Below, piece after piece: positions 34,380 through 52,976 of a stretch of 64,000 bases of DNA; the stretch's first letter is position 1; every line of letters begins with the position of its first letter. The position numbers and the translations under genes were made by a program. The stretch spans positions 3,497 through 67,496 of the forward strand of contig JAZTWJ010000107.1 of the NCBI GenBank assembly GCA_045635785.1. Direction: 5' to 3'. The DNA comes from Candidatus Flemingiibacterium sp. (GTDB lineage: Bacteria > Bacillota > Clostridia > Oscillospirales > CAG-272). Under the pieces are notes generated by a model. It did not search any database and was not told where the DNA came from. It saw only the letters and a list, made by a program, of their open reading frames with translations.

Positions 34380-34411
34380 TTCTGCCGCAAATAGCTTTAT
34401 TTGCGGCAGAA
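34380..34411 (+). terminator. terminator-like hairpin
   Basis: TTCTGCCGCAAAT-agcttt-ATTTGCGGCAGAA forms a 13-bp stem; weak U-tract. Confidence 0.6.
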
Positions 34412-34470
34412 TTCATGTGTTATGACATCTTGTCCGTGCGCGGAATTCTTATTATAATTTGGAGTTAGAA

Positions 34471-35157
34471 ATGAAGAAAACGATTAGAATTGCGGCATTT
34501 GCCGCTGCGCTTCTGTCTCTTGCCGTCATGTCGGCAGGCTGTCGGAACGAAAAGCAGATTTCCGAGGATCTTTCAGCCGTTGTTTCGGCGAGCGAGCAGC
34601 TTATTGCGCTGGAAGCAGGCGAAATCATGCTTCACGAATCTGTCAAGCTTGACAATGATGTAGAGGGACATGCGGTGAACAGCATCACCGAATTATATGT
34701 GAAATATGTGCAAAAGGACAATGTTCTCGATTACGATCTCGGCGTAACGGTGACTCGCGTGGTCGGCGGTGACATCACCAGCTACGACGCGCGCCATGAA
34801 AACGGAAAATTCGAGCAGTATCTCAACGGCGAGGAAGTATCCGTTGACCAGATCCCCGAGCCGGATCTGTTTGATCGCTTCCGCATTGATATAACCGCCG
34901 CAGATATTGAAAATATCGAAGTTTTCACAAAAGAGGGCTTGACCTGTTATGCTATGTCGATGATGGATACTTATGCCGACAGCTTTGATTATGAGAAGGA
35001 CGGCGTGAAATACGATTGCACGCAGGTTGTTTATAATTATAACATAGATGCTGAGGGTGTACTTCGTCAGGTTTTGGCAGAAAAGACCGCAACCTTGACA
35101 GATGCTTCAGGCGCATCGCAATCCGTGGTGGAATTTTCACAGGCAATTTCCGAATAG
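34471..35157 (+). CDS. hypothetical lipoprotein
   Basis: Signal peptide with lipobox MSAGC. GGAG 6 nt upstream of ATG 34471. Confidence 0.7.
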   Translation: MKKTIRIAAFAAALLSLAVMSAGCRNEKQISEDLSAVVSASEQLIALEAGEIMLHESVKLDNDVEGHAVNSITELYVKYVQKDNVLDYDLGVTVTRVVGGDITSYDARHENGKFEQYLNGEEVSVDQIPEPDLFDRFRIDITAADIENIEVFTKEGLTCYAMSMMDTYADSFDYEKDGVKYDCTQVVYNYNIDAEGVLRQVLAEKTATLTDASGASQSVVEFSQAISE

Positions 35158-35163
35158 TTTTAA

Positions 35164-35189
35164 GGGGACGCATCCGCGCCCCCTTTTTT
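35164..35189 (+). terminator. intrinsic terminator
   Basis: GGGGaCGC-atcc-GCGCCCC followed by TTTTTT. Confidence 0.8.
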
Positions 35190-35321
35190 GATGCATCAGG
35201 CAATGCCCTTTCGCGTTGCGAGGCGCACGGTGGGCACGCTCCATTTTTGTCAAAATATAGTCGCACATCACAATTTGTACAAGTTTTTCCGATCCATTTT
35301 GTTAATTTCTTTGAAAATCTA

Positions 35322-35350
35322 TTGACTTTGCTTGGATTTTATGATATACT
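35322..35350 (+). promoter_or_regulatory. sigma-A type promoter
   Basis: TTGACT-17 nt-(TGa)TATACT. Confidence 0.68.
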
Positions 35351-35400
35351 CTTATATGTAAACATAAGGCGCAATTTCTTTGGAAAGGTCGAGTTAGCGT

Positions 35401-35724
35401 ATGAAAACACAAGTACCGCATAATGTTCTAACCATTTCAGAAATGACCAAAAGACCCAATCGTATGAATGCGGAGGTCATTGACATCGAAAATGTTATCC
35501 TTACCGAGGAGTTAATAAAAAAACTGCGCGCAAGCCGCAGTATGTTTAATAAAAGTACATATGTGCAGATCCTCTGCGGCGGCGTTCGCTACAATGTAGA
35601 AGGGCTTGATCGACTGAAAAACGATCGCTATCGTTTGACACTCATCTCACCGGAATTTCACGCAACGCTTCACGGATACAAAGACGGTGCCGTACATCTG
35701 ACAAAAATTTCTGCCATTTCTTAA
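35401..35724 (+). CDS. hypothetical protein (107 aa)
   Basis: ORF with GGAAAGG 12 nt upstream of ATG, plus its own promoter and terminator. Confidence 0.5.
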   Translation: MKTQVPHNVLTISEMTKRPNRMNAEVIDIENVILTEELIKKLRASRSMFNKSTYVQILCGGVRYNVEGLDRLKNDRYRLTLISPEFHATLHGYKDGAVHLTKISAIS

Positions 35725-35786: not shown

Positions 35787-35818
35787 GCGCGCTTTCTTTC
35801 CGGGAAGCGCGCTTTTTT
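35787..35818 (+). terminator. intrinsic terminator
   Basis: GCGCGCTT-N10-AAGCGCGC followed by TTTTTT. Confidence 0.8.
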
Positions 35819-36005: not shown

Positions 36006-37283
36006 ATGACACCCAATTCCAACACCCGCAGTGAAAAACTCAAGCTTTTTGTATGCACGGACATTGTCAGCTTGACGCCCGGCTACATGGAGCCCGATGA
36101 TTCCCAGTCGCTGATTCGACTGCTTTGCTTTTCCGATTTGTTCGATATTCGCGGAATCGTAGCCACCGCGCACAAGACCATTGGAACCCATATGCACATC
36201 GTTGACGAAATTCTCGACGCATATGAAAAGGTTTATGATAAATTCTGCGTACATTCGTCCGAATTCCCGACTCCTGCATATTTGCGAAGCATCTCCTTCT
36301 CCGGAAGCGAGCAGAACGGCCTTGAAAATATGGGCGAGGGCAAGGATACGGAAGGTTCCATGCATATCGTTCGCGCGATCAACGAATCCGATACACCCAT
36401 TTGGTTTGTACTGTGGGGCGGCGCGCTGGATCTGGCGCAGGCTATCTGGTATGTTGATAAAAACTATTCCGAGGAAGATGCAAAGGCTTGGCGTGCAAAG
36501 ATCCGCATTTATTCCATCGGCGACCAGTACGATAATGCAGGTCCTTGGATCCGCGAGCATTATCCGGATATTCATTATCTCTCCAGCTACGGCGCATACC
36601 GTGGCGTATACCGCGATGGCGATGTTTCCCTTTCGAGCAGCGAATGGGTGGAAGAAAACATCAAAGGGAACGGACATCCCCTTGCCACCATTTATCCCAA
36701 TTACAACGGCGGCGACCCTTGGGGCGAGGTCAAGGGCATCAAAGAGGGTGACACACCTTCCTTCCTGTTCCTGATCCCCAACGGCTTGTGCTTCCCCAAT
36801 CAACCCGAGCTTGGCGGCTGGGGCGGACGCTTCCAGACTCAAAACGGCATTCGCTACACGGACGACGTGGATAATTGGGAGGGCGAAGCTGCGCCGCGTT
36901 CCAACGTATTCCGTTGGCGTGAAGCCTTCAACAGCGAATTTGTGGCAAGACTGCGTTGGGTAAACTGCACGCCCGCAGAAGCGATCTATCCGCCGATCAT
37001 CGAGGGCGCACAGCAGCCTGAAGTGCTGAATGTCCGCGCAGGCGAGAGCATCAGCTTGAAGGCGCCTGTTGTACATGTAACCAACGGCAACGAAAAGTTC
37101 TCCTACCGTTGGTTTGTATATCCCGAAGTGGAAAACATGCCCGAGCTTGTCACCGAAGGCAATGATGTGCGCTTCACCGTTCCCGCAGACACCAAACAGC
37201 TCGTGGTAAACTTTGCTGTCAAAAACGGCGATTTTCCCTCGATTACGCGCTACAAGCGTTGGATCCTCCACGTTGACGCATAA
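36006..37283 (+). CDS. DUF1593 (nucleoside-hydrolase-like N-domain) family protein, no signal peptide
   Basis: EPDDSQSLIRLL...IRGIV N-domain motif typical of DUF1593. GGAGGA 8 nt upstream of ATG 36006. The 457-aa antisense ORF is rejected. Confidence 0.78.
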   Translation: MTPNSNTRSEKLKLFVCTDIVSLTPGYMEPDDSQSLIRLLCFSDLFDIRGIVATAHKTIGTHMHIVDEILDAYEKVYDKFCVHSSEFPTPAYLRSISFSGSEQNGLENMGEGKDTEGSMHIVRAINESDTPIWFVLWGGALDLAQAIWYVDKNYSEEDAKAWRAKIRIYSIGDQYDNAGPWIREHYPDIHYLSSYGAYRGVYRDGDVSLSSSEWVEENIKGNGHPLATIYPNYNGGDPWGEVKGIKEGDTPSFLFLIPNGLCFPNQPELGGWGGRFQTQNGIRYTDDVDNWEGEAAPRSNVFRWREAFNSEFVARLRWVNCTPAEAIYPPIIEGAQQPEVLNVRAGESISLKAPVVHVTNGNEKFSYRWFVYPEVENMPELVTEGNDVRFTVPADTKQLVVNFAVKNGDFPSITRYKRWILHVDA

Positions 37284-37323
37284 TTGACGAACGATTCATC
37301 TGTTTAGACAAAAGCACAAATTT

Positions 37324-38706
37324 ATGAAGCCAAATATTTTATTCATATCCTGTGATCAACAGCGTTGGGACTGCCTCGGTTTCAATCACAGATATCCTGT
37401 CAAAACGCCGCATCTCGACCGACTTGCGGAGGAGGGCGTGTGCTTTGATCAAAGCTTCACTCCGCTCCCCACCTGCTGCCCTGCCCGACAGGCGCTCATC
37501 TGTGGCAGACGCCCCGAGCGTTACGGCGCGCTGTTAAACTACGATCAGGGGATCCCCGTGCACTCCCTCACCCCCGATGCCTTCTCTTGGGCAAGAGAGC
37601 TCAACGCAGACGGCTACAAAACCGCCTATGTGGGCAAATGGCACGTCAGCCCCAAATATACGCCCCTTGACTTCGGTTACGATGTGTATATCAGCGAATG
37701 GGATCTGAGTGCGCCCATGAAGAAGAAGCATCCAAACTGCAAGTTTGAGAAGAGCTTTTTCGGTGAAAAAAGCCCATTCCCGCTTGAAGATTCGCCCACC
37801 CATCAGAATGCCGCCCATGTGATCAGGCTCATTGATGAGTATGAAAACGGGCCGTGGCATATCAAGATGGATTTTGCGGAGCCGCATCTGCCGTGCCGCC
37901 CATCCGAGCCGTTCGCCTCCATGTACGATCATGAGGATATTCCCCGTTGGCACGCCTTCGACGATCCGCTGACAGACAAACCGTACATTCAAAAGCAAAT
38001 GCTTTTGAATTGGAAGACAGAGGCAATGGGTTGGGAGGATTTCGAAGAAACAGTCAAATTGTATTACGGCTATATCTCTCAGGTCGATGATGCCATCGGC
38101 CGTGTAATCGAGCATCTTCGGAAGAAGAATATGCTTGACAACACCATCATCATCTATACCGCCGATCATGGCGATATGTGTGGTGATCGGCATATGATGG
38201 ACAAGCATTATATCATGTATGAAGAGGTTATACATGTGCCGCTGGTCATCCGTGCGCCCATGCTTTCTGAGGGCGGACGCCGTTGCGATGCCATTGTCAC
38301 GAATATGCTGGATCTGGTTCCGACCATATTGGAAATGGCAGGTCTGGAAGCCCCCGAAAATTCTGACGCGATCTCTCTGATGCCCTATTTGAAGGGCGAA
38401 GAACATCCGTCTCCGCGTCGGTATGCGCTGACCACCTACAACGGTCAGCAGTTCGGATTGTATCTGCAACGCATGATCCGCGACAAACGGTGGAAATACA
38501 CATGGAATCCCACCGATGTAGATGAGCTGTACGATTTGGAAAAGGATCCGTATGAGCTGCAAAATCTTGTGCATGATCCATCTCACGCCGAAATTTTGCA
38601 AAAGCTGCGCATTGATCTGTTCAACGAACTGTTGGCTGTGAACGATTTTACGACTCACGGCAGACAATGGATGAAGGATCAACTGCTGCTCGGACGAAAG
38701 ATCTGA
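37324..38706 (+). CDS. Cys-type sulfatase (formylglycine-dependent), cytoplasmic
   Basis: N-terminus NILFISCDQ, sulfatase signature CCPARQALICG (C-x-P-x-R), YTADHGD. No signal peptide. Confidence 0.9.
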   Translation: MKPNILFISCDQQRWDCLGFNHRYPVKTPHLDRLAEEGVCFDQSFTPLPTCCPARQALICGRRPERYGALLNYDQGIPVHSLTPDAFSWARELNADGYKTAYVGKWHVSPKYTPLDFGYDVYISEWDLSAPMKKKHPNCKFEKSFFGEKSPFPLEDSPTHQNAAHVIRLIDEYENGPWHIKMDFAEPHLPCRPSEPFASMYDHEDIPRWHAFDDPLTDKPYIQKQMLLNWKTEAMGWEDFEETVKLYYGYISQVDDAIGRVIEHLRKKNMLDNTIIIYTADHGDMCGDRHMMDKHYIMYEEVIHVPLVIRAPMLSEGGRRCDAIVTNMLDLVPTILEMAGLEAPENSDAISLMPYLKGEEHPSPRRYALTTYNGQQFGLYLQRMIRDKRWKYTWNPTDVDELYDLEKDPYELQNLVHDPSHAEILQKLRIDLFNELLAVNDFTTHGRQWMKDQLLLGRKI

Positions 38707-38710
38707 TACA

Positions 38711-38743
38711 AAAAGCCGCCAAGGCAAAACCTTGGCGGCTTTT
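38711..38743. terminator. bidirectional intrinsic terminator
   Basis: AAAAGCCGCCAAGG-caaaa-CCTTGGCGGCTTTT forms a 14-bp stem. Confidence 0.82.
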
Positions 38744-38766
38744 GTTATGCAATTTTGGAACGACTT

Positions 38767-39882
38767 TTAGAATGCCATGCGTCCCCATCCGCGATTTTTG
38801 CCGGAAATGGGTTCGAGATTCAAAAGCTCGCGCGCGGTATTTACATAATAGCGGTAATTTTCCAGCGGAGTGCCGTTGGGGATTCTGTGGTCCAAACCAA
38901 AGGCAACGCCACCCTCCTGCATCAGAGGCTGCATCTTATACTCCAGCTCCTTGCGGATATCTTCCTTGGAAGAACGAAGGATATGCTTGTCAATGCCGCC
39001 CTTGAACTTGATGGCATTGCCGTACTTTTTACGCAGCGCGACAATATCCATTCCCGCAGCAGGCTCGCAAGGATAGAAGATGTTGACGCCTGCTTCCATA
39101 AACGGTTCGATGACCGATTCCACGTTGCCGTCGCTGTCCTGCGAGAACAGGCGCGTTCCTCTTTCCTGCAAAAGATCCCAAATTCTTCTGTAATAAGGCG
39201 AGATAAACTCTCTGACCTGCTTCGGGCCGACCAGCGGACCCGATTTGCCCGCCAAGTCTTCATGAACAGCCAGGTTGTCGATGGTAAGCTCGCGGGTGAT
39301 CGCTTCATAAACCTTGAAGGTGGTATCGGACACGGTGTTGATGATGTCCATCATCAGCTCCGGATCCTCGTAATAGCAGATACACGCACCCTCATCGCCC
39401 ATCAGCTCACGCGGAAGGTCATATCCGCCGGGCATGCCGGCAATGATCAGTACGCCCTCCGACTGCAGCTTCTTTGCGCGCTCAAGTCTCTCGCGGTCGA
39501 TGCGGTCGGGAGTAAAGGTGAACATGTGCTTGATCTTCAGCCAGCTGTCCATATCCTTGACCGGATAATCGAGGGGCAGCGGAATGCTGGCGGTCGACTT
39601 GATCAGCTTCATGGTTCTGCCGTAGCCGTCTTTTGTGATACGGTATTCGTCAGTTTCCTCCAAAACCTCGGATTTGAAGGTGTTGCGCGCGCCTGTGCCG
39701 CCGATCCAAAAATTCGGAATGTAGTCAAATTCAAACGCCTCAAGCGAAATTTCCTCGGGGGTTGCGCCCTGCTCTGCCCATTCCTTTTCAAGTCCCACAA
39801 GCGGACCGAAAAGCTCACAGAACATCTGCCGTTCGGGCTTTCCCGTCATCAACTCAATGTATTGCGTTCTTGTCCATTTCAT
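38767..39882 (-). CDS. URO-D/MtaA-like (uroporphyrinogen decarboxylase family) putative corrinoid methyltransferase, paralogue 1
   Basis: 371 aa. AGGAG 9 nt upstream of ATG 39882. SQDSDG at the position where other paralogues have HxCG. GLDHRIPNG near the C-terminus. Confidence 0.78.
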   Translation of the reverse strand: MKWTRTQYIELMTGKPERQMFCELFGPLVGLEKEWAEQGATPEEISLEAFEFDYIPNFWIGGTGARNTFKSEVLEETDEYRITKDGYGRTMKLIKSTASIPLPLDYPVKDMDSWLKIKHMFTFTPDRIDRERLERAKKLQSEGVLIIAGMPGGYDLPRELMGDEGACICYYEDPELMMDIINTVSDTTFKVYEAITRELTIDNLAVHEDLAGKSGPLVGPKQVREFISPYYRRIWDLLQERGTRLFSQDSDGNVESVIEPFMEAGVNIFYPCEPAAGMDIVALRKKYGNAIKFKGGIDKHILRSSKEDIRKELEYKMQPLMQEGGVAFGLDHRIPNGTPLENYRYYVNTARELLNLEPISGKNRGWGRMAF

Positions 39883-39977
39883 AGCAGTAACTCCTGTAAT
39901 AAATATAATTTTACTTTGGGTTTTGCGCCGTTCAAATCCGGTAATAATCGTCTCAAAATTTTTCGTTTTCCAAACCA

Positions 39978-40006
39978 ATCATAACATATTTCCGCTGAAA
40001 AATCAA
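39978..40006 (-). promoter_or_regulatory. sigma-A type promoter for paralogue 1
   Basis: TTGATT-17 nt-(TGt)TATGAT on the minus strand. Confidence 0.6.
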
Positions 40007-40044
40007 CCCTTTTTGCCAAACATACCGAAAATCTAACAGGTGAC

Positions 40045-40088
40045 CTAAAATTTGGTCGTTTTTTTTCTAAAGATTGGTCGTTTTTTTT
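40045..40088. repeat. tandem 22-bp direct repeat immediately upstream of the corrinoid-operon -35
   Basis: CTAAAATTTGGTCGTTTTTTTT / CTAAAGATTGGTCGTTTTTTTT (20/22 identical). Confidence 0.8.
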
Positions 40089-40099
40089 GGAAATATCTC

Positions 40100-40128
40100 T
40101 TGAAAAACAAATCAAATCATGTTATAAT
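40100..40128 (+). promoter_or_regulatory. sigma-A type promoter for the corrinoid protein operon
   Basis: TTGAAA-17 nt-(TGt)TATAAT. Confidence 0.72.
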
Positions 40129-40211
40129 GGTGATAGGGCATTGTACCCTTACTACCCTAATAAATTAGGGAATATTTTACAAAAACTAAAACAAAGACAG
40201 GAGACTGCACC

Positions 40212-40856
40212 ATGAGCATTTTGAATGAAATTTCGACTAATCTTCAGGCAGGCAAGGCAAAGATCGTTAAGGAGCTTGTACAGCAGGCACTCGACGAAGG
40301 CATCAACGCCAAAACGATTCTTGAAGAAGGTCTGATCGCCGGCATGAACGTTATCGGCGAAAAGTTCAAGAACAACGAGGTTTATATTCCCGAGGTTCTG
40401 GTGGCTGCAAGAGCGCTGAACATGGGAACCACCCTTCTCAAGCCCTACTTCAGCGAAGCAGGTATTGAGTCTGTTGGCCGTGTATGCATCGGTACCGTTC
40501 AGGGCGACCTGCACGACATCGGTAAGAATCTGGTTAAGATGATGATGGAAGGCAAGCAGCTGGAAGTTGTTGATCTTGGCACCGACGTTTCCGCAGAAAA
40601 GTTTGTACAGGCTGCTGTTGAGCAGAACTGCCAGATCATCTGCTGCTCCGCACTTCTGACCACCACCATGGACGTTATGAAGGACGTTGTTGAGGCAGCT
40701 AAGGCAGCAGGTATTCGCGATAAGGTTAAGATCATGATCGGCGGCGCTCCCGTTAACGAGGATTACTGCAACAAGATCGGCGCGGACGTTTACACCATTG
40801 ATGCAGCAAGCGCAGCAGATGCAGCACTTGAGCTCTGCAAGGCAATGAACGCGTAA
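40212..40856 (+). CDS. corrinoid (B12-binding) protein, MtaC/MtbC-like
   Basis: 214 aa. N-terminal helical cap plus a Rossmann B12-binding domain with DxHxxG (GDLHDIGKN). AGGAGA RBS. Confidence 0.9.
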   Translation: MSILNEISTNLQAGKAKIVKELVQQALDEGINAKTILEEGLIAGMNVIGEKFKNNEVYIPEVLVAARALNMGTTLLKPYFSEAGIESVGRVCIGTVQGDLHDIGKNLVKMMMEGKQLEVVDLGTDVSAEKFVQAAVEQNCQIICCSALLTTTMDVMKDVVEAAKAAGIRDKVKIMIGGAPVNEDYCNKIGADVYTIDAASAADAALELCKAMNA

Positions 40857-40934
40857 GGCATTACATAAGCGATAACGAGCTTTTTTCTGCCTCGCGCACT
40901 GTCTAATTTGAAAACATATTCAAGGAGAAACACG

Positions 40935-42008
40935 ATGCAAAAATTGACTTCCAGAGAGCGCATATTACGTGCGATCCGTCATCAGGAAATCGACCGTATC
41001 CCGATGGTTGACTCCGCTTGGAGAGGTACCATCGAGCGTTGGAGACGCGAAGGCCTTCCTGCCGGCACCAATTGGGAAGATTATTTTGGATACGATAAGG
41101 TTGTCCGCATTTTCCCCGACACTTCCCCTCGCTTTGAGAAAAAGGTTTTGGAAGAAACCGACCGCTATCAGATCGTAACCACCTCGTGGGGTATGACACA
41201 GAAGAAATTCTTTGAGCTTGACTCCACGCCCGAGCCCCTCGGCTCCTACTACTCCTCGTCCGATAAGTGGGAGGAGTGCAAGGCGCGCATTCTCACCGAT
41301 TATGAAGACCGTATTCCGTGGGACCACATCAAGAAGAACTATGCATATTGGAAAGAAAACGGCTATCTGCTGCAGTTAGGCTTCTTCTTCGGCTTTGACA
41401 TCACCCACTCCCATCTCGTTGGAACGGAAAACGTTCTGATCGGTATGTATGAGGAGCCGGAATGGATCGAGGACATCTTCGATACCTGTCTGGGCGTCGC
41501 GCTGAGACTTTCCGAAAAGCTGCTTGATGCAGGCTACGAGTTTGACGGCATCTTCTGGTATGACGATATGGGCTACAAGGGCTCCACCTTCTTCTCCCCC
41601 TCGCTGTACCGCTCGCTGCTCAAGCCCTACCACAAGCGCGCTGTTGATTGGGCGCATGCTCGCGGCATGATCGCTGAGCTTCATTCCTGCGGCTTCATTG
41701 AGCCTCTGATGGATGACCTTATCGACATCGGCGTTGATATGCTCAACCCCCTTGAGGTTAAGGCAGGCATGGATCCCTTCAAGATGAAGGAGAAGTACGG
41801 CGACAAGATCGCATTCCGCGGCGGTATCAATGCTCAGCTGTGGGATAAGCCCGATGAAGTGCTTGACGAGATCTCGCGCCTCATCCCCGTACTGAAGGAA
41901 GGCGGCGGATATGTATTCGCTTCTGACCACTCCATCCCCAACTGCGTAACCTTCGATACCATGAAGAAGATCGTCGCGCTGGTTAACGAGCTCGGCAAGT
42001 ACAACTGA
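40935..42008 (+). CDS. URO-D/MtaA-like putative methyltransferase, paralogue 2 (HSCG class)
   Basis: 357 aa. AAGGAGA 7 nt upstream of ATG 40935. LHSCG ... SDHSIPNC. Confidence 0.78.
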   Translation: MQKLTSRERILRAIRHQEIDRIPMVDSAWRGTIERWRREGLPAGTNWEDYFGYDKVVRIFPDTSPRFEKKVLEETDRYQIVTTSWGMTQKKFFELDSTPEPLGSYYSSSDKWEECKARILTDYEDRIPWDHIKKNYAYWKENGYLLQLGFFFGFDITHSHLVGTENVLIGMYEEPEWIEDIFDTCLGVALRLSEKLLDAGYEFDGIFWYDDMGYKGSTFFSPSLYRSLLKPYHKRAVDWAHARGMIAELHSCGFIEPLMDDLIDIGVDMLNPLEVKAGMDPFKMKEKYGDKIAFRGGINAQLWDKPDEVLDEISRLIPVLKEGGGYVFASDHSIPNCVTFDTMKKIVALVNELGKYN

Positions 42009-42250
42009 TTTGATATCATCATAAATCTATAACCGATTGCCAAACGCTGTTTTGCAATCGAACCGCTGCAGGCGGAGCCATCGGGCGATTTGTATACCAA
42101 ACGCCCGATGGACACCTGTTGCATTTTCTACAGTGTCTTTTCCGGCGATCAATCTGCCCGAAAAGACTCTTTCATTACAACCGTAATTTCACATCTGTTA
42201 TCGCTTCTTTTGCGGTAACAAATGACGACAAACAATCGATAGGGATTATT

Positions 42251-42808
42251 ATGGAAAATCAAAAACTTTTTGATACCTTAAAAGACATTGCAGCGGAGCT
42301 TGGAGCCTTCCGTTCCGCAATTCTTCCCGCAAGCGAAGTGGTGACAGACCGCGTCTTCCGCGAGCTCTGCAAAAACAATTCCTGCGGTGTTTATGGCAAA
42401 TGCTACACCTGTCCACCCGATGTGGGCGAAATTGACGATCTGATCGCCGATTTGTACAAGAGACAGTATATGTTTTTCTATCAGACCGTCACCGAGCTGG
42501 AGGACAGCTTCGATATTGAAGGTATGCAGCTTGCCAAAAAGAAGCATGTCAAGCTTGCCCTCGCACTGCGCGAGCGTTGCAATGCACTCGAGCTGAAAAA
42601 TGCACTGCATCTGCAAGGCGGCGGTTGCGGCGTATGCAAGGTCTGCGCCAAGAGAACAGACGAGCCCTGCCGTTTCCCCGATAAGGCGATTTCTTCGCTG
42701 GAAGCATACGGCATTTATGTCTCCAAAACTGCCGAAAAAACGGACATGAAATATATTAACGGTCAGGACACCGTTACATATTTCGGTGCGGTTTTCTTCG
42801 ATTTTTGA
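42251..42808 (+). CDS. DUF2284-type predicted metal-binding protein
   Basis: 185 aa. Cys-rich motifs CGVYGKCYTCPP and GGGCGVCKVC. Start chosen at ATG 42251; the track extension upstream is not convincing. Confidence 0.72.
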   Translation: MENQKLFDTLKDIAAELGAFRSAILPASEVVTDRVFRELCKNNSCGVYGKCYTCPPDVGEIDDLIADLYKRQYMFFYQTVTELEDSFDIEGMQLAKKKHVKLALALRERCNALELKNALHLQGGGCGVCKVCAKRTDEPCRFPDKAISSLEAYGIYVSKTAEKTDMKYINGQDTVTYFGAVFFDF

Positions 42809-42837
42809 GATAACTTGAAATTACGAAAGGGACTATC

Positions 42838-43845
42838 ATGAGAAAGCCTGATTTTGATAATCTGCTGATGGTGTTGAACCGTGAAAAGCCAAGCAGAAAG
42901 ACGCTCTTTGAATTTGCCATTTCACCTAAAATGGTAGAGCATATCACATCCCCTGCTCCCAGATCCAACGGGGATCTCGCTTATCGGCAATGGTTTGCGG
43001 ATGGCGTTGCAAAGCTCGGATATGATTTCGTTTGTTTTCATCCCACGAAATTCTATTTCAAGCGCAAATCATCCGAATCGCACGAAAAGAAAAGCAGCCG
43101 TTCGCTCAACGAAACTGCGACCATCACCGACTGGGATTCGTTCGAACAATACAAATGGAACGAGCCGGAGGACTTCCCTTGCTCTCTTGACGGCTTGAAG
43201 CTTCCGGATGGCATGAAGGTGATCCTTTTTTCATCAGACGGCGTACTTGAAAATACCATTGGTCTTTTTGGATATGACAATCTCTGCTATGCCTTGTATG
43301 AAGACGAAGAGCTGGTAAGCACTGTATTCCAGAACGTCGGTGAGCGTCTCTACCGTTATTATGCAGAGTATGTGCATGACGAAAGAGTCGGCGCCCTTCT
43401 CATAAACGATGACCTCGGCTTCAATACGCAGACGCTCCTTTCGCCTGAGCTGCTCAGAAAATATGTATTCCCTTGGCATAAGCGTTTTGCTGAGCTGGCG
43501 CATCGCGAGGGTAAGCCCGCGCTGCTTCACTCCTGCGGCAATTTGAGCAAGGTATACGATGATATCATCGATGTACAGAAATTCGACGGCAAGCATTCTT
43601 ATGAGGATGGCATTCAGCCCGTCGAGGAGGCATATAAGATGCTGCACAAGAGAATTGCGGTTCTCGGTGGCATTGACGTAGACTTCCTCTGCCGTCGCAC
43701 GCCCGAGGAAATTGAAAAACGTTGCCGTGAAATGCTCGATTTAGCAGAAGCGGACGGCGGATATGCACTCGGAACGGGTAACAGCGTTCCCACATATATG
43801 CCGGTCGAAAATTATTTCGCAATGCTGAAAGCAATCGAAGACTAA
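42838..43845 (+). CDS. URO-D/MtaA-like putative methyltransferase, paralogue 3 (HSCG class)
   Basis: 335 aa. GAAAGGGA 7 nt upstream. LLHSCGN. Confidence 0.78.
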   Translation: MRKPDFDNLLMVLNREKPSRKTLFEFAISPKMVEHITSPAPRSNGDLAYRQWFADGVAKLGYDFVCFHPTKFYFKRKSSESHEKKSSRSLNETATITDWDSFEQYKWNEPEDFPCSLDGLKLPDGMKVILFSSDGVLENTIGLFGYDNLCYALYEDEELVSTVFQNVGERLYRYYAEYVHDERVGALLINDDLGFNTQTLLSPELLRKYVFPWHKRFAELAHREGKPALLHSCGNLSKVYDDIIDVQKFDGKHSYEDGIQPVEEAYKMLHKRIAVLGGIDVDFLCRRTPEEIEKRCREMLDLAEADGGYALGTGNSVPTYMPVENYFAMLKAIED

Positions 43846-43864
43846 TTCATAATCATATCGAAAT

Positions 43865-43908
43865 GGGAGGGCCCTCGCGGTGCAAACCGCGAGGGCATGA
43901 TAACCAAA
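43865..43908 (+). promoter_or_regulatory. SD / anti-SD / SD leader hairpin in front of paralogue 4
   Basis: GGGAGG-GCCCTCGCGG-tgcaaa-CCGCGAGGGC-atgataaccaaa-ATG, with a perfect 10-bp stem. Confidence 0.5.
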
Positions 43909-45033
43909 ATGACAAACAGAGAACGCGCCATGAATATTTTGCACTATCGGGATGTGGATCGCATGCCGGCAGTGCATTTTGGCTATTGGAAAGAGCTTCT
44001 TGAAGAATGGGCTGTGCAGGGAAAGATCCCACAGCACATTGCGGATAACGCAAAAACATCCCATGCGGCGGAGGTTGAGCTGGACAAGCTGATCGGATGG
44101 GATTTCGGTTGGAGCAATACCTTCAGCGCAAGGAGCGGACTTCGTCCGGCCTTTGAACGCAAGGTGCTGGAAACTTTGCCCGACGGTACCCAGAGAATCC
44201 AGAACGGCAGCGGCTTGATCGAAAGGATCCGTCCCGGTGTGGTTTCCATTCCGTCGGAGGACGACTATCTTCTCAAGGACAGAGAGGCTTTTGAGACACT
44301 GTATCGTCCAAAAATGCAGTTTTCGTCCGATCGCGTCGATACGGAATATTTCAAAGCTTTTAACGAGAATGTTTATAATAAGACGGATTATCCCATTGCC
44401 ATCTTCTTAGGAAGCGTGCTCGGAACCATCCGCAACATGGTCTCCGTCGTTGGCATGAGCTATTTGGTTTACGATGAGGATGAAGATCTGTTTGCCGATG
44501 TAGTGGATACCTTCGCCGAGATGCAATGCAAATGCGTGGAGGAAATTCTGAAAACCGGCGCTAAATTCGACTACGGTCACTATTGGGAGGATGTCTGCTT
44601 CAAGAACGGTCCGCTGATCGCTCCCGAGTTGTTCGACGAGCTCTGCGCGAGACATTACAAGCGCAGAAACGATCTCTGCCGCAAATACGGCATTGATATC
44701 ATTTCCCTCGACTGTGACGGTGTGACCGATAAGCTTTTGCCCACATGGTACGAGAACGGCGTTAACACCATGTTTCCCATCGAGGTTGGCGTATGGGGCG
44801 ATCAGTTTGAAGCTGCCAGAGAGAAATTCGGCAAGGGCATGCTTGGCGTCGGCGGCATGGACAAGACCGCATTCCGCAAGGATAAGGCGGCTGTGGACGC
44901 AGAACTTCGCCGCATGGAGCGATTGGCATCCATGGGTGGCTTTATTCCCTGCCCCGATCACAGACTGATGCCCGGCTCCAAGTTTGAGCTAGTTCAGTAT
45001 TACGCAGAAGAAATCAAAAAAATCAAGCTTTGA
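43909..45033 (+). CDS. URO-D/MtaA-like putative methyltransferase, paralogue 4 (DCDG class)
   Basis: N-terminus MTNRERAMNILHYRDVDRMP aligns with paralogue 2 (TSRERILRAIRHQEIDRIP). An in-frame alternative ATG at 43897 abuts the hairpin. Confidence 0.78.
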   Translation: MTNRERAMNILHYRDVDRMPAVHFGYWKELLEEWAVQGKIPQHIADNAKTSHAAEVELDKLIGWDFGWSNTFSARSGLRPAFERKVLETLPDGTQRIQNGSGLIERIRPGVVSIPSEDDYLLKDREAFETLYRPKMQFSSDRVDTEYFKAFNENVYNKTDYPIAIFLGSVLGTIRNMVSVVGMSYLVYDEDEDLFADVVDTFAEMQCKCVEEILKTGAKFDYGHYWEDVCFKNGPLIAPELFDELCARHYKRRNDLCRKYGIDIISLDCDGVTDKLLPTWYENGVNTMFPIEVGVWGDQFEAAREKFGKGMLGVGGMDKTAFRKDKAAVDAELRRMERLASMGGFIPCPDHRLMPGSKFELVQYYAEEIKKIKL

Positions 45034-46574
45034 TCATAGCATCAAAGCACCGGAGAGGAGAAACTACCATTTCTGCTTCTATTTTAATTACAGTTAACGG
45101 AGAAAAGCGCACGGTCGAGGCAGGCACGCGGCTTTCGGAGCTATTTTTGACAGAGCTTCCCTGCGGCGCGCACGGCAAATGCGGCAAGTGCAAGGTTCGG
45201 GCAAGCGGCGAACTCTCGCCGCTGACAAGCGCCGAGCAAAAATTGTTGGACGCGAAGGAGATCTCTGACGGCATCCGCCTCGCCTGCTGCACGGACATTC
45301 TCGGCGAATGCACGGTGGAAACAGCGTTCGAAAAAAGCAAGGACGACGCGGTTTTGACGGCAGGCAGAGCCAAGAATATCACGCTGAACGCATCCTTCAA
45401 GCAGATCGGTGCCGCCATAGACATCGGCACGACCACCCTTGCCATCAGACTGCTTTCCCCCTTAGGGGAGATCCTCGCGGAGGGCGGTATGGCAAATCCC
45501 CAAGCATCCTTCGGCGCAGATGTTATTTCCCGCATGGAATCCCATCTGGCGGGCAATGGTGCGGAACTGGCTGATACCATTCGAAGTGCCATCGACCGCA
45601 TGCTTGCGGATCTTTGCAAGGGCATCGGACGGGATCCTTCGGAAATTGACGGGTTGGTCATCACAGGCAATACGGTCATGCTTTATCTGCTCACAAATAC
45701 CACACCCGAGCCACTCTCCCATGCGCCCTTCACGCTCACCCGCGATTTTGGCGAAGCCATGTCTGCCAAGACGCTCGGCTTATCATCTGCCGCGCCTGAC
45801 GCAGAGGTCTATCTTGCCCCCTGCATCTCCGCATTTGTAGGCGGCGATACGATCTGCGCGATCCTTTGCGGCGAGCTTGTCGGCAAGGAAAATGCAATGC
45901 TGGTTGACATCGGCACAAACGGCGAAATGGCGCTTTACTGCAAAAATTCGCTGTACACCTGCTCCACCGCCGCAGGCCCTGCCTTTGAAGGCGTTGGCAT
46001 TTCCATGGGTATGCGCGGCGCACCGGGTGCCATCGACAAGGTTTACTTGACCGAAAACGGCATCTCCGCCCATGTTATCGGCGAAACAAAGCCCGTCGGC
46101 ATCTGCGGAAGCGGCATTGTGGATGCCATGGCAGCACTGCTCGAAAACGGAACGGTGGATGAAACCGGCTTCATTGAGGAAGACGAAGTGATGATTCTGC
46201 CGCCGGTCGCACTCACGGGGCAGGATATTCGCATGATACAGCTTGCAAAGTCTGCCATTTACTCGGGTCTAAAAACGCTGATGCATGCGGCAAATATCGA
46301 CGAGAGTGAGGTCACAACGCTCATGATCGCAGGCGGATTCGGAAGCTATCTGAACACCGTCAGCGCGGGCAGGATCGGCTTGCTTCCGAAATCTTTGGTC
46401 AGCAAGGTTGCCGTTATCGGCAATGCGGCGCTGGGCGGCGCAGAGCTTCTGCTTTTGAACACCGCCATGCGAAAGGATGCCTATGCGCTGGCAAAATCGG
46501 CGCAATCCATTGATTTGGCGAGCGATCCCTATTTCGCAGATACCTACATCGAAGCGATGATGTTTGAAGAATAA
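45030..46574 (+). CDS. corrinoid reductive activase (RACE/RamA-like: [2Fe-2S] ferredoxin domain + ASKHA ATPase)
   Basis: CGAHGKCGKC...LACC ferredoxin-type Cys pattern, then DIGTTT and DIGTNGE ASKHA phosphate motifs. Start uncertain (TTG 45030 or ATT 45069). Confidence 0.85.
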   Translation: MIIASKHRRGETTISASILITVNGEKRTVEAGTRLSELFLTELPCGAHGKCGKCKVRASGELSPLTSAEQKLLDAKEISDGIRLACCTDILGECTVETAFEKSKDDAVLTAGRAKNITLNASFKQIGAAIDIGTTTLAIRLLSPLGEILAEGGMANPQASFGADVISRMESHLAGNGAELADTIRSAIDRMLADLCKGIGRDPSEIDGLVITGNTVMLYLLTNTTPEPLSHAPFTLTRDFGEAMSAKTLGLSSAAPDAEVYLAPCISAFVGGDTICAILCGELVGKENAMLVDIGTNGEMALYCKNSLYTCSTAAGPAFEGVGISMGMRGAPGAIDKVYLTENGISAHVIGETKPVGICGSGIVDAMAALLENGTVDETGFIEEDEVMILPPVALTGQDIRMIQLAKSAIYSGLKTLMHAANIDESEVTTLMIAGGFGSYLNTVSAGRIGLLPKSLVSKVAVIGNAALGGAELLLLNTAMRKDAYALAKSAQSIDLASDPYFADTYIEAMMFEE

Positions 46575-46597
46575 ACTTAAGAATTGTATTCTTTTTT

Positions 46598-46636
46598 TAA
46601 GAAAGCTTTCGCCGATGCGAAAGTCATGGTGATTTT
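46598..46636 (+). promoter_or_regulatory. anti-SD / SD leader hairpin in front of paralogue 5
   Basis: AAGAAAGCTTTCGC-cgat-GCGAAAGtcatggtgattttATG. Confidence 0.45.
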
Positions 46637-47695
46637 ATGATTTCACTTCAAAAAGAGACTCTCGCTCTGCTGGAGGACATTGAAAACCGTATCGACCCCG
46701 AAACCGAGGAAGATTTTCGCAATCAATGGAGGGGCTTCTTATACGGCGAATTCAAAGGCGATCTATTCCACCCCGAACGCAAGAAATTGTCCCCACCCAA
46801 ATACGAGCCTCCCTTTGTTCCCATCAACGATGCCCTTAGCAGTGTTGAGCTGATGCTCAGAGCACAGCTTTCCTCGGTTTCGGTCGCGCTCAATACCCCC
46901 CATCGGAATCTTTGCATGCGCGCGAATTACGGAACGGGTATTATGACATCGCTGTTTGGCGCAGAGATTTTCGTGATGCCCTATGCCACCAATACGCTTC
47001 CGACCACCCGTCCCATCAACGACACTGAATGGATCCGCCGCATGGTGGATAAGGGCGAGCCGAATCTGATGGGTGGCTTTGGTAGCGATGTGTTTGCATT
47101 TGGCGAGCTTTGTGCGGAAGTATTCGAAAAATATCCGCGCATTCGCTCCTATGTATCGGTCTATCACCCCGATTTACAGGGTGCGCTCGATATTTGCGAA
47201 ATGCTGTGGGGAGCCGAAATGTTCTATGCCATGTATGACGAGCCGGAGCTTGTCCATAGTGCCCTGCAGCTTTCCGCCGACACGTTCACATCCTTTATGC
47301 ACAAATGGCATCGAATCTTCCCTCGCAACGATGAGATGAATGTCCATTGGGAGTTTCTCTGCCACCGCGGCTCCATTTTGATACGCGACGACAGCGCGAT
47401 GAATCTCACGCCCGAATTTTACAAGGAATACGCGGCTCCCTATGATGCGCTCCTTTTAGAACGCTTTGGCGGCGGCGCGGTGCATTTCTGCGGACGCGGA
47501 GATCATTATATCGAAACCATGTCCGAAATCCCCTATCTTTACGGCATCAATCTCTCGCAACCCTCATACAACGATATGGAAAAGATCTATCGCAATACCG
47601 TTGACAAGGGTATTCCGATCTTTAATTTGAGTGCGCGTCAAGCAAAAGCGGACATCGGCCGCGAGGGCGGTTTCCATCATCTTGTCAGCATCTGA
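46637..47695 (+). CDS. URO-D/MtaA-like family protein, paralogue 5 (HFCG class, divergent)
   Basis: 352 aa. AVHFCGRGDH. Last gene of the plus-strand operon. Confidence 0.72.
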   Translation: MISLQKETLALLEDIENRIDPETEEDFRNQWRGFLYGEFKGDLFHPERKKLSPPKYEPPFVPINDALSSVELMLRAQLSSVSVALNTPHRNLCMRANYGTGIMTSLFGAEIFVMPYATNTLPTTRPINDTEWIRRMVDKGEPNLMGGFGSDVFAFGELCAEVFEKYPRIRSYVSVYHPDLQGALDICEMLWGAEMFYAMYDEPELVHSALQLSADTFTSFMHKWHRIFPRNDEMNVHWEFLCHRGSILIRDDSAMNLTPEFYKEYAAPYDALLLERFGGGAVHFCGRGDHYIETMSEIPYLYGINLSQPSYNDMEKIYRNTVDKGIPIFNLSARQAKADIGREGGFHHLVSI

Positions 47696-47715
47696 TTCCT
47701 GTTTTAATACAAAAA

Positions 47716-47745
47716 GCCGCACATTCTTCTATGAGAATGTGCGGC
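47716..47745. terminator. bidirectional terminator
   Basis: GCCGCACATTCT-tctatg-AGAATGTGCGGC, flanked by an A-run and a T-rich tail. Confidence 0.75.
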
Positions 47746-47767
47746 GTATTAAATTTTATACGAAATT

Positions 47768-48886
47768 TTATCGTCTTTGCGGACCGCGCATGCAGATCTG
47801 CGCGATCTGCTGCAGACGCTCTATCGCATAGGGAAAGAACGCTTTGTATGCCTCGCAGTGGACATTGATGTCCGGCTTTCCATCCGCAAATGGCTCGCGA
47901 TCCCGTCGGCATCCGCCGCGGCAAATGGGATACCATTGGCATCCGTCACACTGTGCATGAACCGCTGTTGATGGCTCCGTAAACCGCTTCGCCTGCTCCG
48001 AACCTCGCATATCCGCAAAACTGTCGGTGGCAACATTTCCAAGCCTAAATTCATCCAACACATAAAAATCGCAGGGATAAACGCTGCCATCGCCTTCGAT
48101 AACAAAATAGCAGGTGCAAAAGCCGCTCATACCGCAGGCTTCGGGCGGCTGTCCGCAAAGCATACTTACATAGTTGTCAAAGTTTCGCACGCTGACAAAG
48201 TGTCCGCTCATGAAGTCCTGATAATAACAGTCAAAGGTGGTTTTCAAAAACTCCGCGTAACGCTTCCCATCCAACGAATAAAGCTGTTTCTCGCCATCAA
48301 AGCCGTCAATGCAGGGGATAAACTGAATATATCCAAACTTTTTCAGCGCATTGTAAACCTTCTGCGGATGCCTTGCCACCAGATTGTTCACCACACACAA
48401 CACATTGTATTCCACATGATAACGGTCAAACAGCGCGGCGGTTTTCATAATACGGGCATAGGTTCCCTCTCCCGCTCCATCAATGCGCATGCTGTCGTGA
48501 AGCTCGCGGTATCCGTCCACCGACAATCCAACGAGAAAATGATTCTCCGCGAAAAATTTCGCCCATTCTTCATCAATGATATATCCGTTGGTTTGGATGG
48601 CATTGCGAATTTGCAGATGCTTCGTATTATATTTTTTTTGCAGGTCGATGAGCAGGCGGAAATAATCTAAGCCCGCCAGCGTAGGCTCGCCCCCTTGGAA
48701 GGAAAAGCTGCACAAGCCCTCTGCCTCATCAAGCGCGCGTTTGACCATCGTTTCGAGCAAAGCGTGGCTCATGATGCCGTAGGATTTCACCTCCCGATGG
48801 TCGGTAACATCGGCGTAAAAGCAATATTTGCATCGCATGTTACAAAGTGAGGACGCAGGTTTGATGAGCATGGTAATGGGTGGCAT
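47768..48886 (-). CDS. anaerobic sulfatase-maturating enzyme (radical SAM / SPASM)
   Basis: CNMRCKYC radical-SAM cluster motif plus C-terminal SPASM Cys clusters (CGMSGFCTC, CDGCQWYPICRGGC). ATG 48886 has GGGAGAA upstream. Confidence 0.88.
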   Translation of the reverse strand: MPPITMLIKPASSLCNMRCKYCFYADVTDHREVKSYGIMSHALLETMVKRALDEAEGLCSFSFQGGEPTLAGLDYFRLLIDLQKKYNTKHLQIRNAIQTNGYIIDEEWAKFFAENHFLVGLSVDGYRELHDSMRIDGAGEGTYARIMKTAALFDRYHVEYNVLCVVNNLVARHPQKVYNALKKFGYIQFIPCIDGFDGEKQLYSLDGKRYAEFLKTTFDCYYQDFMSGHFVSVRNFDNYVSMLCGQPPEACGMSGFCTCYFVIEGDGSVYPCDFYVLDEFRLGNVATDSFADMRGSEQAKRFTEPSTAVHAQCDGCQWYPICRGGCRRDREPFADGKPDINVHCEAYKAFFPYAIERLQQIAQICMRGPQRR

Positions 48887-48934
48887 AATTTTCTCCCGTA
48901 TATGAAAATAATATTCGCGCTCACGCGCCAAAAT

Positions 48935-50098
48935 CTACTTTGCCAAATACAGCGACATGACGACCGTCAAAATCGCCAGAAATGCAAAATTGATCGCAAG
49001 GAACAGCAGAATGTAAGATTTGGTTCGCGCAGGATAATTTTTTGTGAATTCGCGGAAGGTGATCAGACTCGCCAGCGATGCAATGAGTGTTCCCACGCCG
49101 CCAATATTCACGCCGATCAACAGCGCACGGTAATTCTCTGTAAACTGCGAAAGTAAAATTGCCGACGGAACATTGGATATAAACTGACAGGATAAAATGG
49201 AAGTAATGAGCGTATTGCGTTCAAGAAGCCCCGAAACGAATGCCCGCACCGCCTCAATGCGCGCCATATTGCCGCTGAATACAAAAAAGGCGACAAAGGT
49301 TCCAAGAAGCGGATAATCCACCATTGCCAGCGCCTTTCTATCAAGAAAAAGCAGTGCAGGAACAATTAAAAATCCGAACTGATAGGGAATTCCGCGGAAC
49401 ACAATGGCAATCGCAAACACAAACAACACCGCCAACAGTATCGCCTGTTTTTTAGGCAATGGCGGCGTGTCGTCCGACGGAATTTCAACTTTAACAGACT
49501 TCACAAAGAAACAGCAAAGTGTAATGATCACAATGGAAATCACAAAGGGGAGAGCCATGATTGCCATAAATTCGCCGGTGGGAATGTTGAATTTCGTATA
49601 AAGGTAAAGATTCTGCGGATTGCCGAAGGGTGTGAGCATGCCGCCGAGATTTGCCGCCACATTCTGCAAAATGAAGGTAAGTGCGGTATATTTGGTATGC
49701 CCCGTCACATTGAGGACGAAGTATCCAAGCGGTAAAAAGGTCAGAAGCGCCATGTCATTGGCGATCAGCATGGATCCGATGAAGGTGATATAGACCACCG
49801 CAATGACCGACAGTCGAATGCTGCCGCACCGCCGTACCACTTCCCTTGCGAGAATGTAAAAAAAGTTGATGTTTTTTAGTCCGCAGACCACCGCCAATAC
49901 AGAAAACAGACAAGTTAGTGTCTTGAAGTCGAAATAATGAAGATACGCCGCATCGGGCGGAACGATGCACATGGTGACAAGCGCCGCCACACAGGCGATG
50001 AGAAATACCGCGTTTTTCTTAACAAAAGCAATTATAGGGTTAGCATGCACCGTTTCAGCGGCGCCGATCCGTTTATTTGAAAAGCCAAAAAATCGCAA
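48935..50098 (-). CDS. ArsB/NhaD-superfamily (citrate-transporter-like) anion permease
   Basis: 387 aa, polytopic, with the GGMLTPFGNPQN motif. TTG start with AAGGA 11 nt upstream. Confidence 0.72.
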   Translation of the reverse strand: MRFFGFSNKRIGAAETVHANPIIAFVKKNAVFLIACVAALVTMCIVPPDAAYLHYFDFKTLTCLFSVLAVVCGLKNINFFYILAREVVRRCGSIRLSVIAVVYITFIGSMLIANDMALLTFLPLGYFVLNVTGHTKYTALTFILQNVAANLGGMLTPFGNPQNLYLYTKFNIPTGEFMAIMALPFVISIVIITLCCFFVKSVKVEIPSDDTPPLPKKQAILLAVLFVFAIAIVFRGIPYQFGFLIVPALLFLDRKALAMVDYPLLGTFVAFFVFSGNMARIEAVRAFVSGLLERNTLITSILSCQFISNVPSAILLSQFTENYRALLIGVNIGGVGTLIASLASLITFREFTKNYPARTKSYILLFLAINFAFLAILTVVMSLYLAK

Positions 50099-52968: not shown

Positions 52969-52976
52969 GGAAAAAA

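Follow-up and report, generated by a model that had tools for sequence, protein, structure and literature searches.

Gene content of the 14-kb block

The window, i.e. the whole analysed stretch of 64,000 nucleotides, carries a 14-kb block in which an island of genes for corrinoid-dependent methyl transfer is flanked on one side by genes for a DUF1593 protein and a sulfatase and on the other by genes for an anion permease and an anaerobic sulfatase maturase (anSME). The source is an uncultured, spore-forming Clostridia bacterium whose closest relatives are Oscillospiraceae MAGs. The predicted genes and signals of the block were as follows.

35787..35812, plus strand: intrinsic terminator of the upstream unit (GC-rich stem of 11 bp, then a T-run; dG -18.8 kcal/mol, z -3.8)
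36006..37283, plus strand: DUF1593/Sde182 nucleoside-hydrolase-like protein, predicted cytoplasmic, 425 aa (PF07632 240 bits, PF21027 28.6 bits)
37324..38706, plus strand: Cys-type S1 sulfatase, predicted cytoplasmic, 460 aa, with the motif CCPAR (PF00884 151 bits, SGSH_C 80 bits)
38711..38745, both strands: bidirectional terminator hairpin between the sulfatase and UROD_m genes (dG -25.7 (+)/-26.6 (-) kcal/mol, z -5.7/-7.1; U-tracts on both strands)
38767..39882, minus strand: UROD_m, URO-D-like methyltransferase in a unit of its own, divergent from the corrinoid operon (PF01208 51.6 bits; weak MtaA/CmuA matches)
40052..40128, plus strand: island promoter region (direct repeat TTGGTCGTTTTTT twice, then TTGAAA-17-TGtTATAAT)
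40212..47695, plus strand: the whole corrinoid operon (Pfam and NCBIfam), consisting of the next seven genes
40212-40856, plus strand: corrinoid protein (PF02310 and PF02607)
40935-42008, plus strand: URO-D protein (PF01208)
42119-42808, plus strand: DUF2284 protein (Pfam/NCBIfam)
42838-43845, plus strand: URO-D protein (PF01208)
43897-45033, plus strand: URO-D protein (PF01208)
45030-46574, plus strand: RACo activase (RACo domains)
46637-47695, plus strand: weakly matching URO-D-like protein (PF01208)
47716..47745, minus strand: terminator of the permease-anSME unit at its convergent junction with the island (12-bp stem, then TTTTT; dG -21.6 (-)/-22.8 (+) kcal/mol, z about -6)
47768..48886, minus strand: anSME, radical SAM/SPASM protein, 372 aa (NF010321 494.9 bits, TIGR03942 387.5 bits)
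48935..50098, minus strand: IT-superfamily (CitMHS/ArsB-NhaD/SLC13-like) anion permease, about eight TM-like segments predicted (PF03600 CitMHS 85.6 bits)

The sulfatase combines the features of family S1, namely a C/S-x-P-x-R motif, an N-terminal metal-binding Asp and the sulfatase fold (PF00884). Its motif reads C51-C52-P53-A54-R55 with Cys51 as the formylglycine site, and in an alignment of 23 orthologs C51, P53, A54 and R55 as well as D11/Q12 were invariant. The best solved relatives were carbohydrate and choline sulfatases (6PT4, an exo-2S-iota-carrageenan sulfatase and the nearest of them, 187 bits; 7OZ8, 162 bits), and the protein scored below the cut-off of every NCBIfam equivalog model searched. 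The sulfatase start used here corrects the one given in the source annotation. A choline-O-sulfate route, considered on account of weak choline-sulfatase and MtgC-like matches, was rejected because the block encodes no MttB-family methyltransferase and these matches scored far below the cut-offs.

The DUF1593 reading frame opens at a GTG at 36000, and the 425 aa protein of the source annotation matches a start at 36006. The closest database homologs of this protein share just 40-43% identity with it, and its sole PDB relative was 2YHG (Sde_0182). Neither the DUF1593 protein nor the sulfatase has a signal peptide or a hydrophobic N-terminal segment, and their Pfam domains begin at residues 16 and 3, respectively.

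On the opposite flank, the anSME exceeded both curated equivalog cut-offs (441 bits for NF010321 and 349.45 bits for TIGR03942). It contains the radical-SAM CxxxCxxC motif in the form CNMRCKYC (residues 15-22) and the domains PF04055 and PF13186 (SPASM). The permease gene is transcribed before the anSME gene within one minus-strand unit; a 56% identical homolog from Vescimonas is annotated as 'SLC13 family permease'. Export of sulfate would be at least as plausible a function as import of an anionic substrate.

The island encodes an MT I (UroD superfamily), a corrinoid protein and an activating enzyme together, and Pfam revealed no pterin-binding methyltransferase (MT II) in the block; one of the URO-D paralogs could act in the manner of MtqA. 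The five URO-D paralogs, all matching PF01208, are mutually just 19-24% identical. When they were aligned to MtaA (4AY7) and among themselves, their zinc-ligand patterns were H-C-H, H-C-N, H-C-?, D-D-H and D-D-H, with Asp-x-Asp in UROD_m and UROD3 at the positions of the MtaA His-x-Cys. The UROD_m reading frame extends to a TTG at 39978 with a likely ATG start at 39882. A plus-strand ORF at 38755-39984 was discarded as a shadow of this gene.

The sequence-only reading had placed the same DUF1593 and sulfatase genes, the CCPAR signature and the missing signal peptides here, and Pfam and the ORFs confirmed them to within a few bases; NF010321, TIGR03942 and PF03600 did the same for its anSME and anion permease on the minus strand. 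The methyltransferase block that it had drawn between these flanks is present as well, with one correction: it also includes a fifth URO-D-like gene, which is read from the minus strand (38767-39882/39978).

Transcription units and regulatory signals

The terminator at 35787..35812 closes the preceding unit, and the DUF1593-sulfatase unit therefore begins after it. Altogether the 14-kb region comprises four predicted transcription units, with terminators between them whose dG ranges from -19 to -27 kcal/mol. The island is served by a promoter of its own, an 11/12 match that scored highest in the 19 kb scanned. The upstream repeat TTGGTCGTTTTTT was the sole operator-like motif found; it is not common to the other units and occurs nowhere else within the window. 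No regulator gene was found within the block, and an Rfam scan of the block returned no riboswitch or other RNA, just two tRNAs downstream. Four units, strong terminators and a separate island promoter speak against the earlier proposal that the whole 14 kb forms one catabolic locus.

Sulfatase and anSME genes are partners in related genomes

For the sulfatase family 83 loci with 1.43 Mb of flanks were compared, and for UROD2, the central URO-D gene of the island, 83 loci with 0.72 Mb. These sets contained no close relative of the source genome, the nearest sulfatase being 69% and the nearest UROD2 65% identical. Exact-sequence look-ups, among them those with the sulfatase and the corrinoid protein of the block, returned no match.

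An anSME gene directly precedes the sulfatase gene, in the same operon, at seven of the 11 closest sulfatase loci. These loci (L001-L006 and L009) combine sulfatase orthologs of 63-68% identity with an anSME ortholog of 55-60% identity; both genes lie on one strand and adjoin with gaps of 0-45 bp or an overlap. A clustering and scan of the genes around the closest sulfatase orthologs, meant to yield substrate hints, showed anSME as the only recurrent neighbour; the others were unrelated, including a SAM methyltransferase, MBL, GH32, GH42, a GFO/IDH/MocA oxidoreductase, SDR, ChrA and an amidase. In Subdoligranulum variabile, anSME homologs adjoin one to four sulfatases. The functional link between the two flanks that had been drawn from general knowledge of sulfatase maturation is thus borne out by operons of orthologs, and it is well supported that the sulfatase and the anSME belong together.

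Alternatively, the two genes may be close together purely by chance, and the anSME may serve to mature a peptide or further sulfatases whose genes lie elsewhere in the genome. Unlinked arrangements do exist, since the sulfatase orthologs of L007, L008, L010 and L011 had no anSME within the stretch retrieved. However, the relatives that provide the best match for one protein of the block also do so for the other, and there the two genes share an operon. Furthermore, any two given genes of a genome of a few Mb should lie less than 10 kb apart in well under 1% of cases by our estimate, and the anSME passes sulfatase-maturase equivalog cut-offs and not peptide-maturase ones. We therefore regard chance proximity as very improbable.

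No shared synteny of the flanks and the corrinoid island among the relatives compared

No locus combined the sulfatase unit with the corrinoid island, neither among the 83 sulfatase loci nor among the 83 UROD2 loci. The sulfatase loci contained anSME in ten cases and no corrinoid protein, RACo, DUF2284, DUF1593 or permease homolog; the UROD2 loci contained no anSME and no RACo, three of them had a corrinoid protein and two a distant sulfatase. Stand-alone genes encode the closest UROD2 homologs (57-65% identity). In S. variabile different records carry the sulfatase/anSME clusters on the one hand and the RACo/URO-D cluster on the other: the RACo locus contains DUF2284 and URO-D genes without a sulfatase, and the anSME loci lack corrinoid genes. 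DUF1593 homologs were found in unrelated contexts, with no sulfatase or corrinoid neighbours in the loci examined, and the 56% identical Vescimonas permease had no anSME or sulfatase neighbour. Conserved synteny of the flanks with the island, the lack of which the sequence-only reading had named as refuting its proposal, was thus not observed.

Composition is uniform across the block, which is flanked by housekeeping genes, and GC and GC3 of the individual genes gave no sign of a recent foreign origin for either the sulfatase or the corrinoid genes. A search for an 'empty site' without the block, in which the flanking PGI, CsaB-GT and PTS genes were compared with all retrieved loci, yielded no syntenic locus.

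As a separate observation, URO-D-like genes recur inside sugar/sulfatase operons without a corrinoid protein nearby. Such stand-alone genes lie beside sulfatases in sugar operons at L020, L103 and L141 and in the vicinity of sulfatases at L023 and L028.

Interpretation of the locus

The 14 kb probably represent two separate modules, each familiar by itself, that have become interleaved in this lineage, and not a new combined pathway, because no relative ties the sulfatase and its maturase to the corrinoid block. In one module, anSME would activate the sulfatase by oxidising its Cys51 to formylglycine, enabling the enzyme to hydrolyse a sulfate ester inside the cell. What the module acts on, in which direction it transports and what DUF1593 contributes we infer as follows: the co-transcribed DUF1593 protein is a probable glycoside- or furanoside-binding or hydrolysing partner acting on the same imported compound, and the SLC13/IT-type permease, co-transcribed with anSME, may move released sulfate outward or the sulfated substrate inward. 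In the other module, the divergent URO-D-like methyltransferases would transfer methyl groups to or from a single corrinoid protein, with RACo maintaining its reduced state. The interleaving would have arisen by rearrangement rather than by selection for a joint pathway.

Selection for a joint arrangement nevertheless keeps some plausibility, because the sulfatase and anSME genes are only 9 kb apart with nothing but the island between them, and all genes concerned form a single accessory block amid housekeeping genes. The permease could then import a sulfated and O-methylated anion, e.g. a sulfated methoxy-aromatic, a phase-II conjugate or a sulfated O-methyl sugar; the anSME-matured sulfatase would desulfate it, URO-D proteins would transfer its methyl group to the corrinoid protein and DUF1593 would deglycosylate it. 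The Asp-x-Asp of UROD_m and UROD3 corresponds to an O-methyltransferase-like pattern described in PMC10418091, and the URO-D/sulfatase neighbourhoods elsewhere can be read in the same direction. Against this, the modules were kept together in no relative examined, and the operator-like repeat of the island is not shared by the other strongly terminated units. Moreover, the adjacencies elsewhere involve non-orthologous proteins (24-33% identity), and their occurrence in 2/83 and 3/83 loci is about what chance would give for two expanded families, by our rough estimate. On balance, a single catabolic locus of this kind appears unlikely. Likewise unlikely is its extended form, in which a gut bacterium uses one cytoplasmic locus to strip both sulfate and O-methyl groups from a compound, for instance a sugar that is sulfated and O-methylated or a sulfated methoxy-phenolic conjugate. 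The Asp-x-Asp URO-D proteins would then be O-demethylases feeding the shared corrinoid protein, and the stand-alone URO-D-like genes in the sulfatase neighbourhoods of other Clostridia (L020, L103, L141, L023 and L028) would encode demethylases of O-methyl sugars that rely on a corrinoid protein from another locus.

The same genes might serve sulfur scavenging, with sulfatase and anSME freeing sulfate, the permease taking it up and the corrinoid methyltransferases demethylating methyl-sulfur or methyl-selenium compounds. The IT superfamily includes sulfate carriers, and the SLC13 annotation of the permease homolog would fit. This is nonetheless very unlikely, given that none of the five URO-D proteins has a His-Cys-Cys zinc triad, that genes for sulfate assimilation or sulfur metabolism are absent from the window, and that the comparison of related loci counts against it in the same way as against the single catabolic locus.

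If, against our preferred reading of two interleaved modules, the modules were coupled, they would constitute the first case of an anaerobic pathway that links desulfation with corrinoid-dependent demethylation, which would be relevant to the processing of host phase-II conjugates or of methylated, sulfated glycans by gut bacteria. The sequence-only reading knew of no described system combining these modules, and the literature searched on DUF1593 and on sulfatases with corrinoid or O-demethylase systems yielded none. The evidence points against coupling, and the practical value is therefore more modest: the locus offers a clean example of a sulfatase-anSME pair that was probably split by rearrangement, and the URO-D-like genes that occur repeatedly within sugar and sulfatase operons, with no corrinoid protein nearby, provide a lead.

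Comparison with known systems

Corrinoid O-demethylase and Cdm-type systems of acetogens consist of MT I (UroD superfamily), a corrinoid protein, MT II and an activating enzyme (PMC13222342). The island likewise pairs UroD-superfamily methyltransferases with a B12-binding corrinoid protein and a RACo-type activase, but it has five very divergent URO-D paralogs, no pterin-binding MT II and a non-acetogen context; matches of its URO-D proteins to MtaA (4AY7) and CdmB (9RUI) were weak, with E-values of 1e-3 to 1e-7 at best. For type 1 mlp clusters, Kountz and Balskus proposed demethylation of methyl-sulfur or methyl-selenium compounds, and a His-Cys-Cys zinc triad is reported to be near-invariant in type 1 Mlps (PMC10418091). 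In contrast, the five paralogs of the island lack this triad and no sulfur or selenium genes lie alongside.

The DUF1593 protein matches the NH-like and C-terminal domains of Sde_0182 (2YHG; PF07632) over its full length. Unlike Sde_0182 it is a stand-alone, predicted cytoplasmic protein without carbohydrate-binding modules. Sde_0182 showed no activity towards nucleosides and is presumed to bind furanoses, and no activity is known for the family (PMC8910321).

The closest parallel to the flanks is the clostridial Cys-type sulfatase with its anSME (anSMEcpe type; NF010321/TIGR03942), to which the genes described here correspond in maturase scores, the C-x-P-x-R motif, the missing signal peptide and the operon found in relatives. 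They differ from these systems in that the two genes lie 9 kb apart on opposite strands, each with a new partner, DUF1593 for the sulfatase and the SLC13-type permease for the maturase.

Gene content and transcription units of the block

The block at 36006-50098 was mapped from the ORF listing and profile searches of the window. The profile searches recovered all four flanking genes named in the sequence-only reading, i.e. those for the DUF1593 protein, the sulfatase, the anaerobic sulfatase maturase (anSME) and the permease. As a correction, one URO-D gene of the block sits on the minus strand (38767-39882); a plus-strand ORF at 38755-39984 was rejected as a mere shadow of it. The components are new members of already known kinds.

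Genes and hairpins of the block and its upstream border
35787-35812, terminator ending the upstream unit
36006-37283, plus strand, DUF1593/Sde182 nucleoside-hydrolase-like protein (PF07632, 240 bits)
37324-38706, plus strand, S1 sulfatase (PF00884, 151 bits; SGSH_C, 80 bits)
38711-38745, perfect hairpin with U-tracts on both strands (dG -25.7 and -26.6 kcal/mol)
38767-39882, minus strand, URO-D-like protein
40212-40856, plus strand, corrinoid protein (CP)
40935-42008, plus strand, URO-D-like protein
42119-42808, plus strand, DUF2284
42838-43845, plus strand, URO-D-like protein (UROD2)
43897-45033, plus strand, URO-D-like protein
45030-46574, plus strand, corrinoid activase (RACo)
46637-47695, plus strand, weak URO-D-like protein
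47716-47745, second hairpin (dG about -22 kcal/mol)
47768-48886, minus strand, anSME (NF010321, TIGR03942)
48935-50098, minus strand, CitMHS/IT-superfamily permease

The first hairpin stands between the sulfatase and the convergent URO-D gene, the second between the last island gene and the convergent anSME gene. Over 19 kb, no other promoter match is as good as TTGAAA-17-TGtTATAAT (40100-40128), which precedes the CP gene. The terminator, the hairpins and the island promoter divide the 14 kb into four units: DUF1593 with the sulfatase, the URO-D gene on the minus strand, the corrinoid operon, and the permease with anSME. Just 5' of the -35 box in front of the corrinoid operon, TTGGTCGTTTTTT occurs as a direct repeat, two copies 22 bp apart (40052-40086, plus strand); the window has no further copy, and the repeat is a possible operator. 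Neither a riboswitch nor a regulator gene was found inside the block.

Outside the block the window carries housekeeping genes, upstream for type III glutamine synthetase, Mur ligase, asparagine synthase, GerA, the shikimate pathway and PGI, downstream for a CsaB-type pyruvyl transferase, two tRNAs, PTS enzyme I and EIICBA. Base composition and GC3 are even over the block and its flanks. The stretch 33954-35724 (plus strand), which ends at the upstream terminator, has lower GC (0.42-0.48) and three small genes without a family match, encoding a P-loop-like 135-aa protein, a predicted 232-aa lipoprotein (signal ending ...SAGC) and a 107-aa protein. About 3 kb off the block, the two tRNA genes (52885-53100, minus strand) lie between the genes for the CsaB-type glycosyl/pyruvyl transferase and PTS enzyme I; no integrase or repeat marking an integration site was seen there. 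A further URO-D-like gene (60008-61120, minus strand; PF01208, 65 bits) stands alone beside an M14-like peptidase gene (57888-59966) and brings the URO-D paralogs in the 64-kb window to six.

Sulfatase and maturase

In an alignment of 23 orthologs, C51, P53, A54 and R55 of the sulfatase motif C51-C52-P53-A54-R55 were invariant, as were the N-terminal D11/Q12. The sulfatase as annotated in the source genome (P0001, 422 aa) begins 38 residues late (window 37324-37437); this start is probably wrong, since it cuts off the D11/Q12 metal-site motif. The absence of signal peptides claimed previously was borne out, because the domains begin at residues 3 (sulfatase) and 16 (DUF1593) and leave no room for one. 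The anSME scored above two curated equivalog thresholds (NF010321, 494.9 vs 441; TIGR03942, 387.5 vs 349.45).

Sulfatase contexts were collected by two look-ups and by scanning a single genome for each GTDB species, with tblastn against all window proteins. The closest relatives come from Oscillospiraceae and Clostridia MAGs of animal guts, the nearest non-self homolog having 69% identity. In the comparison loci L001-L006 and L009 (sulfatase identity 63-68%), the sulfatase gene is immediately preceded by a codirectional anSME ortholog (55-60%), and the two genes often overlap. Neighbour clustering gave anSME as the sole conserved neighbour, the remaining ones being unrelated. Because Cys-type sulfatases need formylglycine, made in anaerobes by anSME, and because both proteins have their closest relatives in common, with the two genes joined in one operon there, the proposed sulfatase-anSME link is supported, and the partnership is, judged from sequence, ancestral and functional. 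Particular to this lineage is that the island splits the pair, whose genes lie on opposite strands, each beside a new partner.

One pathway or two modules

The 14 kb had been read as a single catabolic locus. In the test preset to refute this, the flanks showed no synteny with the island in relatives, and the model is not borne out. In 83 sulfatase loci (1.43 Mb of flanking DNA), homologs of CP, RACo, DUF2284, DUF1593 and the permease were found in none, anSME in 10 and a URO-D-like gene in three. UROD2, the central URO-D gene of the island, belongs to a very large family; its nearest homologs (57-65% identity) are stand-alone in unrelated contexts, several just 3' of lexA. Among 83 metagenomic UROD2 loci (0.72 Mb), three had a CP and two a distant sulfatase, and RACo and anSME were found in none. 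Of the two anSME loci of Subdoligranulum variabile, one has a single sulfatase and the other four, neither with corrinoid genes; its RACo locus has DUF2284 and several URO-D genes and no sulfatase. In Vescimonas RACo stands alone. No anSME or sulfatase was found beside the Vescimonas fastidiosa permease (56% identity), nor were sulfatase or corrinoid genes near DUF1593 homologs in three contexts; the window's DUF1593 protein has no close relatives (best 40-43%).

The linkage of the closest UROD2 homologs (57-60% identity) to lexA is recurrent, directly downstream in three metagenomic contigs and nearby in a fourth (L085 9303-10990; L086 9357-10990; L171 9359-11005; L084 8362-10990).

That sulfatase unit and island nevertheless form one desulfation/demethylation pathway could be argued from the entire accessory block lying in one piece among housekeeping genes, and from the relatives compared reaching only 69% sulfatase identity. 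Furthermore, URO-D-like genes without a nearby CP occur inside sulfatase/sugar operons elsewhere:

URO-D-like genes in sulfatase/sugar operons of comparison loci
L020 7652-16761, AraC, URO-D, sulfatase, SBP, GH106
L103 1545-7114, sugar ABC transporter, sulfatase, URO-D
L141 225-7195, URO-D, two sulfatases, GH2
L023 1801-14136 and L028 4937-18208, looser forms of the arrangement

Also encoded across these operons are ABC sugar transporters, GH106, GH2, fucose isomerase and an apiosidase-like protein. No CP or RACo is within reach of the URO-D-like genes, which stand alone and may be O-methyl-sugar demethylases using a CP encoded elsewhere. However, the proteins in these adjacencies are non-orthologous, and by a rough estimate their frequency is close to chance for two expanded families. 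With the 83 loci of each kind and the separate loci of S. variabile, the coupled pathway is not supported and we regard it as improbable. The lack of synteny in relatives instead makes it likely that the region is two known modules, interleaved.

Comparison with known systems

In L001 (1239-4838), two ChrA-family (chromate/oxyanion transporter) genes lie directly 5' of the anSME-sulfatase operon, with a divergent LysR regulator. They match the SLC13-type permease ahead of anSME in the window, which makes two instances of an oxyanion-type transporter linked to anSME; the arrangement would fit export of sulfate no less than import of a substrate.

The five island URO-D paralogs share only 19-24% pairwise identity. 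Aligned to MtaA (4AY7; His-x-Cys...Cys), their putative zinc-ligand positions read H-C-H in 40935-42008, H-C-N in 42838-43845, H-C-? in 46637-47695, which also lacks the C-terminal segment, and D-D-H in 38767-39882 and 43897-45033; His-Cys-Cys was found in none of the five. These predicted patterns differ from type 1 mlp clusters, where His-Cys-Cys is reported as near-invariant (PMC10418091), and appear closer to those of UroD-superfamily O-methyltransferases (PMC10418091; PMC13222342).
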